From the NCBI RefSeq assembly GCF_003334405.1, contig NZ_QOWM01000001.1: a stretch of DNA of 64,000 bases. One strand, given 5' to 3'. The translations under genes and the position numbers were made by a program. Shown one piece after another: positions 50,338-61,007 of the stretch. Source of the stretch: Escherichia coli (lineage in GTDB: Bacteria; Pseudomonadota; Gammaproteobacteria; Enterobacterales; Enterobacteriaceae). Within the stretch, counting starts at the first letter, position 1. Each line of letters begins with the position of its first letter. The notes under the pieces were generated by a model, which was not told the DNA's origin, did not search any database, and was given only the letters and a program-made list of their open reading frames with translations.

Positions 50338-50751
50338 TCACGCAATTTTTCTGGCCATCAGATAGATGGCCGGTTCCTGCACAATTTCATCCAACAGATG
50401 AATGAATTGAATGCTACGCGCCTGCCACACAGACGTCGCGTCATCCGCCAGTGGCGCGAATGCCCGGGTCAACAGGGCGGTGTGGCTGGCGTCAATAACA
50501 ATCTCACCAAAAGTCATCACCCCCAGCATCTTACGTCGGGCTTGCTCCTCTTCGACCAGTGCAAGCCAATCTTCGTATTCCGTCAGTGGGCAGCGGAAGG
50601 CGACATTCAGACAATCAATCACGCCAACGTGATGGCCGATAGCTAGCGAGTAATACATTACCTGAGAGCTGTGTTCCGGCATCTCGTCGCTACTGGCGAC
50701 AAACTTTTTTCGCAGCGTCCAGAAAACAATTTCCCCGCACTCTTCAGTCAT
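50338..50751 (-). CDS. hyfJ: hydrogenase-4 component HyfJ (HycH-like)
   Basis: ORF 50338-50814 trimmed to ATG 50751 (137 aa, [17 protein letters not shown]). Confidence 0.9.
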
Positions 50752-51502
50752 GTAACCCCCGGAGTACGCGAAAGAGTTGCTGAACGATACTATTGAGACG
50801 TGGATCGTCGGCATCGCGCAACCAGGTGTTAACCCGATTTCCTGTAGGATCGTCGCTTAAATGGCGCAGGAGCCGATCGCAAATTTCTCGCCCCTGACGA
50901 TAGCCCGCCAGCCGCCGCGCTTCTCGCTCAATGGCGATACGCTGTGATGGCGGGATCTGCGGCCACAACGGTTGCATAGTCACCCCGGTGGGATCGCGAT
51001 AATCCACAGCGTGAATCTTCTGTTGCAGCAAACCGAGCGCCACGGCGAAACCGTGAATGGTGGCGGCCGGTGTTGGCGGGCAGCCGGGGATCCAAACATC
51101 AATGGGGACAATGGTGTCGCTACCGCCCCAGACGCTGTAGAGATCGTGGAAAATACCGCCGCCGACACCGCACGCGCCGTAGGAAACACAAATTTTATGA
51201 TCGGGGGCAGACTCATACGCCCGAAGTGCAGGCATACGCATCGCCCGGGTGACTGCGCCAGTAAATAACAAAATATCGGCGTGACGCGGTGATGAAACAA
51301 CCTTAATGCCAAAACGTTCTGCGTCGAATACTGGTGTAATGGCAGCAAAAATTTCGATTTCACAGGCGTTGCAGCCGCCGCAATCGACGCGATAAACGTA
51401 AGCCGAGCGACGGATATCCTGTAGCAAATGCCGCTTCATCTTTTGCGTTTGCTCGTCCAGCGTGATGGGCTGGCTGACATGTTGTGTAAGCACTGGACTC
51501 AT
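50744..51502 (-). CDS. hyfI: hydrogenase-4 small subunit HyfI (NuoB-like)
   Basis: 252-aa [21 protein letters not shown]; CGGCNAC and GCPP motifs. Confidence 0.95.
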
Positions 51503-52044
51503 AGCTGCTCCTTAGCCACCAGCAGTACATCTGTATCGTCGTTGATCAGCGTCGCGCGTTGTTTGCATTCCGGGCAGACGCTCGCTTGCGCCCACAACAT
51601 TTCGCGGTTTTGTGGCGCATTTTGTTGCTGTGCTAACAATTCAGCAGCCAGTGCGATGGTTTTTTGCGGGGCAAACGGGCGTTCGCAACGGCTGCAACGT
51701 TGTAGATGGAACGTCGCGCGGGTATAGAGATCGGCTTTATTGGTGACGGTCAGTTCAAAGTTATTGGTAAGCTGGATGGCTCTGGTCGGGCACACTTCTT
51801 CACAACGTCCGCAGTAAATACAACGCCCCAGATAGAGCTGCCAGGTGCGCGAATTTTGCTGGTCGTCGGTCTGGATAGTCAGCGCATTTGCCGGACAAGC
51901 ACAGGCGCAGGCACCGCAGGCAATACATTGGCTGGGCATCAGGTCCGGTTTTCCGCGAAAGCCAGGGCTGACCTCCAGTGGCGCGAAGGGATATTTCACC
52001 GTCGCGGTTCCGGCGCGCATAATAGTTTTCAGTAACTTCAGCAT
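51499..52044 (-). CDS. hyfH: hydrogenase-4 ferredoxin subunit HyfH (2x 4Fe-4S)
   Basis: 181-aa ORF; two CxxCxxCxxxCP motifs. Confidence 0.95.
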
Positions 52045-52053
52045 CTTCTGTCC

Positions 52054-58361: not shown

Positions 58362-58371
58362 GGTGATTTCC

Positions 58372-60390
58372 TTAGACGGCAATAGCGATTAGCAGCACAA
58401 CCAGTGCGGCGACCACATACAGGCAATAGAGACGAAAGTCGCCGCTTTGCAGATGCTGTATTTCTTTGGCCAGCCGTTGGGTGGCGCTCACGATGGGGCG
58501 GATCACCCGCTCATCCCAGAAGGGTTCTGTGCTCTGAGCCCTGGCGGTGACGTGCGCAAGACCTTTATTTAGCCTCAGCGTAGGGTCGAGCTGTTGTCGT
58601 AGACGAAATAGCGCAGAAAAGACCACACGCAGCGGCTGCATCACGCCATTGCCTGACGGGGCCATCGCATTTTCCCAGCCGTAGCCGCATGCCCAGGCAT
58701 CTCCTGTGCGACGAAACGCTGCGCGGCGCGAACGACACCACAGCCAGTAAAGGCCAGGCAGCAAAGGCATCGCCAGTAGTAACAGCAACAGTAATGAGGG
58801 GGTGACCTGTGTATGAAACGTGCCGGGTACAAGTGCTATTCCGCTGGCGACAGTGGCGGGAGGGGTATTGGTAAACGCATGGGCAATATGCATTATCTTC
58901 GGTGCCAGCCAACTGGCACTAAGCGCAATTAATACGCAGAGTGCCGCGAGCAGTAGCATGGCGACGATCATCGTATTTGGCACTTCCTGTGCCTCTTCAG
59001 CGTGTGTACTGCGCGGCGCACCACAGAAAGTAATACCGTACATTTTTACGAAGCACATTACTGCCAGCCCACCAGTGACTGCCAGCATTACCATAGCAAT
59101 AGGACCCGCAAGTTGTAGCGCTACGGCTTCCACACGACTTAGTGAGAACAGCGACTGCCAGGTGTACCATTCGCTGATAAAACCATTCAGCGGAGGAATG
59201 GCTGATATCGCGAGGCAACCAATCAGGCATGCTGCGGCTGTCCACGGCATCCGTTTCGCTAGTGCCCCCATTTTTTCCATGTCGTGGGTATGCAAACGCG
59301 AAATAATCGCTCCCGCGCCGAGAAATAGCAGCCCTTTGAACAGCGCATGGTTGAGCAGATGAAACAGTGCGCCGAGCAGTCCAACCACGGTGAGCAGCGG
59401 GTCGTGCAGTGACAGACCGACCATCGCCACACCGACTGCCAGCAAAATAATGCCGACGTTTTCGACGGTACTCCAGGCCAGCAGCCGTTTGATATCCTGT
59501 TCCGCCAGCGCATATAGCACGCCCAGGAGCGCGGAGATTGCGCCGATCGCCATCACCAGAATGCCCCACCACAGAGGCAAACCCGTTTGCGCCAGCAGAT
59601 CCATCGCTACTTTCAGGATGCCGAAAATACCTATTTTGACCATTACGCCAGACATCAACGCCGAAGCGTGCGATGGTGCGGCAGGGTGAGCGCGCGGCAA
59701 CCAGCTGTGCAACGGCATCATCCCGGCTTTCGCGCCAAAACCGAAAAAGGCCAGCAGGAACACCGCCGACGCCAGCCCCGGAGAAAGTGAAAGCGTGCGG
59801 AAACTGGCAAAATCGAGGCTGCCGCTTTCGCGCCCCATCAGCAAGAAGGCGATCATTATCAGCACCGATCCGGCGTGGGCGATAAAAAAGTAGAGCATGC
59901 CAGCGTTGATCGACGTTTTATCCTGCCTGGCAATGACCAGAAACCAGGAAGACAGCGACATCATTTCAAACAGCACGATGAACCAAAAAGCGTTGTCCAT
60001 CACCAGCAGGGCAACCATCGATGCGATGAAAATATTCATAAAGAAGCCCATCGCCGCCGCGCCTTTGCCCTCGTATTCGCGCATATAAGTCAATGAATAG
60101 AGAGAACAAACCACCACCAGCAAGGAGATAACCAGCACCATAAATGCCGAGAGGCTATCCATTCGCAGGGTTAAATCGGCAAATTCAAAAGGGGTGGCAA
60201 AACGGGCGACTAAAGTTACACCAGCATGTAATTGCGTAATTCCGCTGATGATGCCAATCACGCCGCCCACCAGCGATGTGATGCCGGAAAGCTTAATAGC
60301 CAGTCTGTCCAGACCGAGTAAAAACAGCGAAGCCAGACTAGCAAACAGATAGAGAATCAGCGACCAGGTTAATAATTGCAGGGCATCCAT
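58372..60390 (-). CDS. hyfB: hydrogenase-4 membrane subunit HyfB (antiporter-like)
   Basis: 672-aa polytopic ORF MDALQLLTWSLILYLFASL. Confidence 0.95.
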   Translation of the reverse strand: MDALQLLTWSLILYLFASLASLFLLGLDRLAIKLSGITSLVGGVIGIISGITQLHAGVTLVARFATPFEFADLTLRMDSLSAFMVLVISLLVVVCSLYSLTYMREYEGKGAAAMGFFMNIFIASMVALLVMDNAFWFIVLFEMMSLSSWFLVIARQDKTSINAGMLYFFIAHAGSVLIMIAFLLMGRESGSLDFASFRTLSLSPGLASAVFLLAFFGFGAKAGMMPLHSWLPRAHPAAPSHASALMSGVMVKIGIFGILKVAMDLLAQTGLPLWWGILVMAIGAISALLGVLYALAEQDIKRLLAWSTVENVGIILLAVGVAMVGLSLHDPLLTVVGLLGALFHLLNHALFKGLLFLGAGAIISRLHTHDMEKMGALAKRMPWTAAACLIGCLAISAIPPLNGFISEWYTWQSLFSLSRVEAVALQLAGPIAMVMLAVTGGLAVMCFVKMYGITFCGAPRSTHAEEAQEVPNTMIVAMLLLAALCVLIALSASWLAPKIMHIAHAFTNTPPATVASGIALVPGTFHTQVTPSLLLLLLLAMPLLPGLYWLWCRSRRAAFRRTGDAWACGYGWENAMAPSGNGVMQPLRVVFSALFRLRQQLDPTLRLNKGLAHVTARAQSTEPFWDERVIRPIVSATQRLAKEIQHLQSGDFRLYCLYVVAALVVLLIAIAV

Positions 60391-61007
60391 TAGCGTTGCT
60401 CCTGAGTGAGGGAAAGGGGATCCTCCCCGCCATTGGCAAACCAGCTTGCGGCAAGGCGCTGTTTTTCTTTCATCTGACGTTGCAGGCTATCACCGGTGAT
60501 CAGCCGTAACGCCTGATTCGGGCAAGCGCGAACGCAGGCCGGACCTTCTGGCAAGAAATCACACAGGTCGCATTTCACCGCGACGGTCTGGACACCAGGT
60601 TCCCAGCGCAGCAAAGCATGTTGTGTTGGCGCGTTTTCTTCGCCGTCTTTGAGTGAGCCTTCAGCCTGAAAAACATATTGCGCATGGGCATTCACCGGAC
60701 GGCTTCCTGAAGCGCTGATTGCGCCAAATGGGCAGACCACGGCGCAAAGCTTGCAGCCAATACAGAGGCTTTCGTTGAGTTGGATCGCATCATCCCTCTG
60801 AGAGATGGCATTGACCGGGCAGACCTGCAGGCAAGGGGCTTCCTCACAGTGATGACACACGACAGGGGCAGTGATTGTTGACGTCTTCGCCAGGGCCAGG
60901 CGCGGGTGTTGCTGTAAACCTTGCGTTTTATGCACGTCCGAACAGGCAGCGAGACAGGTATTACATCCTGTACACCACAGTGGTTCGGCCACCACAAAGC
61001 GGTTCAT
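60390..61007 (-). CDS. hyfA: hydrogenase-4 Fe-S subunit HyfA (4x 4Fe-4S)
   Basis: ORF 60390-61046 trimmed to ATG 61007 (205 aa, MNRFVVAEPLWCTGCNTCLAAC); aggag SD 6 nt upstream. Confidence 0.93.
   Translation of the reverse strand: MNRFVVAEPLWCTGCNTCLAACSDVHKTQGLQQHPRLALAKTSTITAPVVCHHCEEAPCLQVCPVNAISQRDDAIQLNESLCIGCKLCAVVCPFGAISASGSRPVNAHAQYVFQAEGSLKDGEENAPTQHALLRWEPGVQTVAVKCDLCDFLPEGPACVRACPNQALRLITGDSLQRQMKEKQRLAASWFANGGEDPLSLTQEQR

Follow-up and report, generated by a model that had tools for sequence, protein, structure and literature searches.

Packed junctions, annotated start codons and a hyfG deletion in Escherichia coli's hydrogenase-4 operon

Does the close packing of the hyf genes of Escherichia coli tie the translation of each hydrogenase subunit to that of its neighbor, and are the start codons from which that packing is measured the right ones? 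We addressed this question in a 64,000-nt stretch of E. coli DNA (contig NZ_QOWM01000001.1 of assembly GCF_003334405.1, referred to as ‘the window’), whose minus strand carries hyfABCDEFGHIJR-focB at 47.4–61.0 kb, 12 genes with no internal stops. The locus is the E. coli hydrogenase-4 (Hyd-4)/formate hydrogenlyase-2 (FHL-2) operon hyfA-J with its annotated starts. Over 16 kb including the operon it differs from K-12 MG1655 by one base (99.99% DNA identity for hyf), a C>A change at window 60195 that converts hyfB codon 66 from Pro to Thr (P66T). The P66T allele is also found in genomes that are 100% identical to the window. Every one of the 5,426 complete E. coli genomes contained some match to a 12-kb query, and in 4,291 the match covered 80% or more of the query.

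We propose that the operon probably uses termination-reinitiation coupling through its tightly packed junctions, starting from the annotated codons. The cistrons are so closely packed that each initiation region either lies within the 3’ end of the cistron before it or adjoins that end. On completing one cistron, a ribosome would be held locally by the neighboring Shine-Dalgarno (SD) sequence and would restart at the following start codon, with independent (de novo) initiation in a minority of cases, and the outputs of neighboring subunits would thus be tied together. For hyfG, whose weaker GTG start lies 8 nt upstream of the hyfF stop, synthesis would depend largely on ribosomes arriving from hyfF. 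In the course of this work we also found a deletion in hyfG, a separate and testable lead that may matter more than the junctions themselves.

Proposed coupling at the hyf junctions

The hyfH-hyfI pair is one of five native E. coli pairs tested by Huber et al. in a two-reporter system (PMC6728339). The junction that they studied (2019, 2023) is identical to window positions 51499–51517, including the ATGA overlap and the AAGGAG SD inside hyfH. When a premature stop was placed in the upstream gene, translation of hyfI was very low or undetectable, and in three of the tested pairs removal of the SD lowered reinitiation by 60–90% (PMC6728339). The last 15 nt of hyfH were sufficient, and de novo events made up 10–30% of initiation (PMC6728339; PMC10666635).

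Mapping the MG1655 coding-sequence coordinates onto the window gave the following starts, ends and junction distances (negative for overlaps, positive for gaps).

60390–61007, minus strand: hyfA, 205 aa, ATG at 61007 with an AAGGAG SD 5 nt upstream (-7.7 kcal/mol)
60388–60392, minus strand: hyfA/hyfB junction TAATG, stop and start sharing 1 nt (-1), with AGGAG 8 nt upstream, within hyfA
58372–60390, minus strand: hyfB, 672 aa (NF005086, 977 bits)
58359–58374, minus strand: hyfB/hyfC junction TAAGGAAATCACCATG, +10 nt gap, stop codon embedded in the SD
57414–58361, minus strand: hyfC, 315 aa, ATG at 58361
57395–57416, minus strand: hyfC/hyfD junction TAAGGAGC-N11-ATG, +16 nt gap, stop codon within the SD
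55958–57397, minus strand: hyfD, 479 aa (NF005097, 811 bits)
55944–55960, minus strand: hyfD/hyfE junction TAAGGAGATGATGAATG, +11 nt gap, stop inside the SD (-12.0 kcal/mol)
55296–55946, minus strand: hyfE, 216 aa (NF008556)
55289–55298, minus strand: hyfE/hyfF junction TAATGAGATG, +4 nt gap
53711–55291, minus strand: hyfF, 526 aa (NF005041, 1177 bits, full length)
53711–53733, minus strand: hyfF/hyfG junction CGGAGAAACACAGTGAACGTTAA, GGAG SD, GTG at 53721–53719, hyfF TAA at 53713–53711, 11-nt overlap
52054–53721, minus strand: hyfG, K-12-type allele, 555 aa, GTG start at 53721, NiFe large-subunit Cys motifs
52042–52056, minus strand: hyfG/hyfH junction TAAGGACAGAAGATG, +9 nt gap, stop inside the SD
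51499–52044, minus strand: hyfH, 181 aa (NF006076)
51499–51517, minus strand: hyfH/hyfI junction CTAAGGAGCAGCTATGA, AAGGAG SD, 4-nt ATGA overlap (-4)
50744–51502, minus strand: hyfI, 252 aa, NuoB-like small subunit
50744–50762, minus strand: hyfI/hyfJ junction CCGGGGGTTACATGACTGA, G-rich SD, 8-nt overlap (-8)
50338–50751, minus strand: hyfJ, 137 aa, HycH-type maturation factor (NF011664, 208 bits against a cut-off of 145)
Downstream distances: hyfJ to hyfR, +29 nt; hyfR to focB, +21 nt

Four of the nine junctions within hyfA-J therefore overlap (A/B -1, F/G -11, H/I -4, I/J -8) and five are gapped (+10, +16, +11, +4 and +9). The overlaps named in the original prediction, made from the bare DNA, of 1 nt for hyfB/hyfA (TAATG), 11 nt for hyfG/hyfF, 4 nt for hyfI/hyfH (ATGA) and 8 nt for hyfJ/hyfI, proved exact in this mapping. 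At four of the gapped junctions (B/C, C/D, D/E and G/H) the upstream gene's stop codon lies inside the SD of the next, as TAAGGA[G/A/C], and throughout the operon the SD of the downstream gene is found in, or at, the upstream 3’ end, with motifs that are conserved in five genera.

These distances can be compared with those of E. coli as a whole. The commonest distances genome-wide are -4, -1 and -8; the class from -8 to +6 comprises 707 of 2,987 co-directional pairs (24%), and a small peak from +9 to +12 comprises another 203 (7%) (PMC10666635). One or other of these classes takes in seven of the nine junctions in hyf (binomial P ~0.005, taking as base rate the 31% of co-directional pairs that the two classes hold together; PMC10666635). 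Huber et al. 2023 treat -8 to +10 as predictive of coupling, and found pairs at short distance to be 4.5-fold enriched for subunits of heteromeric complexes (PMC10666635). Seven of the hyf junctions lie within -8 to +10/+11; F/G (-11, with its GTG) and C/D (+16) lie just outside the range that Huber et al. treat as predictive. The packing of hyf is tighter than that of the average gene pair, yet typical of operons that encode complexes. Neighboring K-12 operons look alike: gcvR and bcp share 1 nt (at 479 in one MG1655 locus) and hypB and hypC overlap by 10 nt (at 11865–11874 in a second).

Next, we asked how the junctions compare across genera, using junction-by-junction DNA alignments of hyf loci from E. 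coli, Klebsiella indica, four Citrobacter strains, Phytobacter ursingii and Brenneria. The start codons and SDs of all nine junctions align across these genera. Every junction stays within -23 to +16 nt in the five genera, while the exact overlap drifts: hyfF/G overlap by 11 nt in E. coli, 23 in K. indica, 23 in C. amalonaticus, 4 in Phytobacter and 11 in Brenneria, and hyfI/J by 8, 20, 20, 8 and 4 nt, respectively, with a conserved hyfJ start. Likewise, the hyfA/B TAATG is kept in K. indica and Phytobacter and replaced by ATGA/ATG variants in C. amalonaticus and Brenneria. The motif and spacing of hyfC/D (TAAGGAGC-N11-ATG) and the hyfH/I ATGA are unchanged in all five. Proximity is thus conserved and overlap length variable, so selection appears, from these alignments, to act on the closeness of the junctions and not on any particular overlap length.

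Several points weigh against coupling throughout the operon. Experimental coupling data cover one junction of nine, and coupling at the other eight is, like any stoichiometric co-translation of the Hyf proteins, something that we infer. B/C, D/E and G/H fall in the +9 to +12 class, for which Huber et al. think independent initiation likelier, and in their assays a 14-nt gap reduced reinitiation by 40–80% (PMC10666635). In K-12 under laboratory conditions hyf is transcriptionally silent (PMC7654741), and neither N-terminal nor ribosome-profiling data on Hyf proteins were found in the literature. Folds of positions -99 to +30 around each start also indicated no unusual occlusion of the initiation regions: the unpaired probability over -15 to +3 was 0.31–0.59 for the 12 starts, against a background of 0.42 ± 0.13, and this leaves room for independent initiation, above all at the five junctions with gaps. 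Of the twelve initiation regions, that of hyfG was predicted to be the least accessible (0.31). A 6-bp hairpin (UGUUUC-GGA-GAAACA) lies over the hyfG SD (window 53724–53738, minus strand) and is not conserved in other genera. Occluding RNA structure, sought as a sign of obligatory coupling, thus gave no signal in the folds; such structure is a proposed, not a required, feature of coupled pairs.

The alternative is that each cistron is translated from its own SD, and that the short gaps and overlaps reflect compaction and drift of stop codons with no role in coupling. Each start has an SD of its own and no predicted sequestration, and the F/G and I/J overlaps do drift between genera as stops move, a route of overlap evolution that Huber et al. 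also describe; their preference for independent initiation in the +9 to +12 class and the de novo share at hyfI point the same way (PMC10666635). On the other hand, stopping ribosomes upstream nearly or wholly silenced hyfI (PMC6728339). Furthermore, the junctions never open beyond +16 nt in five genera despite ~30% divergence of the flanks. GTG is a weaker start codon than ATG for stand-alone initiation, and that of hyfG would make a weak site on its own. We consider it unlikely that independent initiation explains the layout, and retain termination-reinitiation as the best-supported reading of the translational coupling originally predicted: it is shown for hyfH-hyfI (PMC6728339; PMC10666635), but the five junctions with gaps of +4 to +16 nt may initiate independently.

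Start codons and gene products

All of these distances depend on the start codons. Duplexes with the anti-SD were predicted at -5.1 to -12.0 kcal/mol for all 12 annotated starts, whereas only 30% of 746 background NTG triplets of the operon reached -5 or below. Eleven of the starts are ATG; hyfG alone uses GTG, preceded by an SD, and the original prediction of ‘non-ATG starts’ in the plural was overstated. Roughly 1 in 7 E. coli genes starts with GTG, and one among twelve is about the expected rate. The predicted position of that GTG, 53721, held up, in agreement with MG1655, with PGAP, with the SD and with conservation across genera: GGAGA-N6/7-GTG is invariant in eight loci of the five genera, though the flanks average 61% identity, and both GGAGA and GTG are unchanged across 14 E. 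coli alleles. In K. indica, Phytobacter and Brenneria an upstream in-frame stop makes this GTG the earliest possible start of the open reading frame (ORF). Homology to HycE begins at residue 5 of HyfG, and the HycH profile match of HyfJ likewise begins at residue 5. Judged from these alignments, hyfG really does start at GTG 53721.

Longer ORFs do begin at other codons in the ORF list, such as hyfG ATG 53766 (570 aa), hyfJ ATG 50814 (158 aa) and hyfC TTG 58382, and if these were the true starts some of the overlaps would be artefacts of annotation, a concern to which the absence of experimental N-termini for Hyf from the literature lends some room. Their SDs are absent or weak (+0.5, -2.7 and -5.0 kcal/mol, respectively), they are not conserved, an in-frame stop precedes the hyfG GTG in three genera, and the annotated starts place the HycE homology 4 residues past the hyfG GTG and fit HyfJ to the HycH profile almost from its first residue. 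PGAP and the curated MG1655 record concur on the annotated starts, and PGAP places the starts identically in four further E. coli genomes. We therefore regard mis-annotation as highly improbable. The three longer starts were rejected, together with a longer hyfA start at ATG 61046 (SD -1.7 kcal/mol), for poor SDs, lack of conservation and in-frame stops elsewhere.

The gene set is that of a group 4a [NiFe]-hydrogenase (FHL-2): antiporter-like HyfB, HyfD and HyfF, HyfE, NuoH-like HyfC, ferredoxin-like HyfA and HyfH, the large subunit HyfG, the small subunit HyfI and HycH-like HyfJ. HyfB, D, E, F and H exceed curated NCBIfam equivalog cut-offs. HyfG has the N- and C-terminal NiFe cysteine motifs, which are invariant in the alignment with orthologues, and a C-terminal processing peptide. 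HyfJ exceeds the cut-off of the HycH maturation-protein family and is, going by that family, a maturation factor and not a structural subunit; the ‘10-subunit’ complex of the original prediction had counted it in. There are seven subunits in the solved FHL-1 model, and the text of that paper makes no mention of HycH (PMC9474812). The FHL-2 complex is predicted to consist of HyfA-I and FdhF; dependence on FdhH has been shown for Trabulsiella FHL-2 (bioRxiv 563510).

The paralogous E. coli hyc operon (hydrogenase-3/FHL-1), which has its shared-subunit genes in the same order, offers a comparison that the original prediction had suggested, and it has junctions of the same style (hycB/C -4, C/D +2, D/E +17, E/F +9, F/G -1, G/H -4 and H/I -8), hycE/F matching hyfG/H at +9. 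It differs in that hycE starts with ATG after a 17-nt gap whereas hyfG starts with a GTG that overlaps the upstream gene, and in that hyc lacks the hyfD/E/F genes but has a protease gene, hycI. The hyf (FHL-2) operons of Pectobacterium atrosepticum and Trabulsiella guamensis share the hyfA-J order and the GUG start of hyfG (PMC7384014); their enzyme is active, and they also have the protease gene hyfK. A hyfK/hycI-type protease gene is missing from the E. coli hyf operon. In the Brenneria locus a 158-aa ORF (13106–13582) follows hyfJ with an 8-nt overlap, at the position of hyfK/hycI (maturation protease). The Brenneria, Citrobacter, K. indica and Phytobacter loci share all start sites and tight junctions with the window and differ from it in the lengths of the F/G and I/J overlaps.

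The junction finding is not new: annotation already gives the starts, Finney et al. 2019 noted the GUG start of hyfG, and coupling of hyfH-hyfI is published. It restates the annotation of a well-studied operon, and the balanced-synthesis reading is also in print, so by itself it matters little; the cross-genus conservation of the hyfG GTG, of the other starts and of the tight spacing adds modest value. Upstream of the operon, 42 nt before the hyfA ATG, we noticed by eye a sigma-54 -24/-12-like candidate promoter (GG-N10-GC), TGGCATCCTTTATGCA at window 61049–61064 on the minus strand, which agrees with the published sigma-54/FhlA/HyfR control of hyf.

A 48-nt deletion in hyfG

Comparison of HyfG with HycE exposed a gap of 16 residues in HyfG. 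At the DNA level, 48 nt have been deleted in frame between 8-bp direct repeats: intact alleles read GCCCGTGA-N40-GCCCGTGA, and the window keeps one copy.

52559–52567, minus strand: hyfG deletion scar, single GCCCGTGA copy, identified by comparison with intact alleles

The hyfG of E. coli 2013C-4991 is 48 nt longer and otherwise identical to that of the window. The 16 residues removed (EYSPVGPLIRGSGFAR) include the family-wide GPxxRxSG motif. They are present in the HyfG of K. indica, Citrobacter, Phytobacter and Brenneria (575–579 aa), and align without gaps with HycE, which keeps them (DFSNVGPMVRASGHARD), with Pyrococcus furiosus MbhL, with Thermus thermophilus Nqo4 and with mitochondrial ND7/49-kDa subunits; the GPxxRxSG segment was found in every orthologue and all PDB homologues aligned. 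The window HyfG thus lacks the uninterrupted NuoD/49-kDa-type core with GPxxRxSG that characterizes the family. The arginine of the lost segment corresponds to HycE R395, which belongs to the proton pathway (PMC9474812).

To see how widespread the deletion is, we counted its junction directly and probed for the retained 48 nt in complete E. coli genomes. hyfG is present in 4,295 of 5,426 genomes, and 2,113 of these 4,295 carry the deletion junction. The 48 nt are retained in at least 2,026 genomes by a 72-nt probe, a lower bound because the probe can miss alleles whose single-nucleotide polymorphisms (SNPs) leave no exact 28-mer. MG1655 carries the deletion, as do the K-12 derivatives DH1, JM109, JM83 and NEB5-alpha, and HB101. 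In the O157:H7 strain MB9-1 the segment is intact, all 12 genes are annotated as intact, and the junction geometry is that of the window. In six deletion alleles the 3’ halves are essentially identical, while the 5’ halves are 0–12 SNPs apart and match different intact backgrounds; on this pattern a single origin followed by recombination is the more parsimonious history, and recurrent slippage, which we also considered, the less parsimonious one.

E. coli FHL-2 has been called a long-standing mystery by Lindenstrauss and Pinske. From 15 K-12 strains that Finney et al. engineered to have hyc or T5 promoters, C-terminal HyfG::HycE fusions and an extra protease, no Hyd-4 H2 production was detected, and the authors' conclusion was that ‘additional, unknown, biosynthetic problems’ were still present (PMC7654741). 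Since the catalytic subunit lacks 16 conserved residues, a working complex from this K-12-type allele seems doubtful. We tentatively suggest that the deletion is a natural loss-of-function allele and might be a main reason why Hyd-4/FHL-2 has so far shown no activity in K-12 despite strong promoters and a corrected C-terminal peptide, though we would put this somewhat below even chances. The deletion is unmentioned in the searchable hyfG literature, a search that did not extend to Andrews 1997, Self 2004 and Skibinski 2002, where the gap might be noted. Hydrogenase-4 was thus declared ‘silent’ in laboratory reference strains whose catalytic subunit is missing a conserved part, a deletion that about half of hyfG-bearing E. 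coli genomes do not have. If our suggestion is true, E. coli lineages with an intact operon, O157:H7 for example, could make active FHL-2. With the deletion known, the question of E. coli FHL-2 function becomes directly testable by repair.

Signs of decay in the operon

A further possibility, compatible with termination-reinitiation coupling, is that the junction signals are relics: the layout would have been inherited from a functional ancestor, and the operon in the window would no longer yield an active enzyme. The loss from HyfG of the GPxxRxSG segment with its HycE R395 equivalent (PMC9474812) and the failure of the 15 engineered K-12 strains to make H2 through Hyd-4 (PMC7654741) favor this, as do the 2,113 genomes with the deletion and the 1,131 of 5,426 in which hyfG is missing. 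Moreover, annotation marks hyfF as a pseudogene, through an internal stop or frameshift, in six of 13 sampled E. coli genomes, and in other genomes the element IS421 lies between hyfA and hyfB. In strain YY76-1, hyfG is interrupted by a stop at codon 325. Against this, the remaining hyf ORFs and all junction signals are intact in the window, the deletion is in frame, its effect on HyfG being a prediction from sequence conservation, and some physiological studies, as cited in PMC7654741, ascribe phenotypes in H2 metabolism to hyf mutations in K-12. We judge the evidence on the relic explanation to be evenly balanced.

Minor observations bear on how the locus varies. All 1,131 genomes with no hyfG match contain the flanking DNA. 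Among the ten best-matching genomes (100% identity over 12 kb), nine list an IS4-like IS421 and the tenth an IS5-like ISKpn26. In strain AR_0149 (locus positions 10392–11754, at about window 60390) IS421 sits between hyfA and hyfB, cutting hyfA to 603 nt and destroying the TAATG junction. Outside E. coli, a hyfF relative in Superficieibacter sp. 1612_C1 (locus positions 7545–9537) matches residues 163–519 only and is split into several short ORFs; as no intact hyf operon surrounds it, we take it for a probable degraded remnant.

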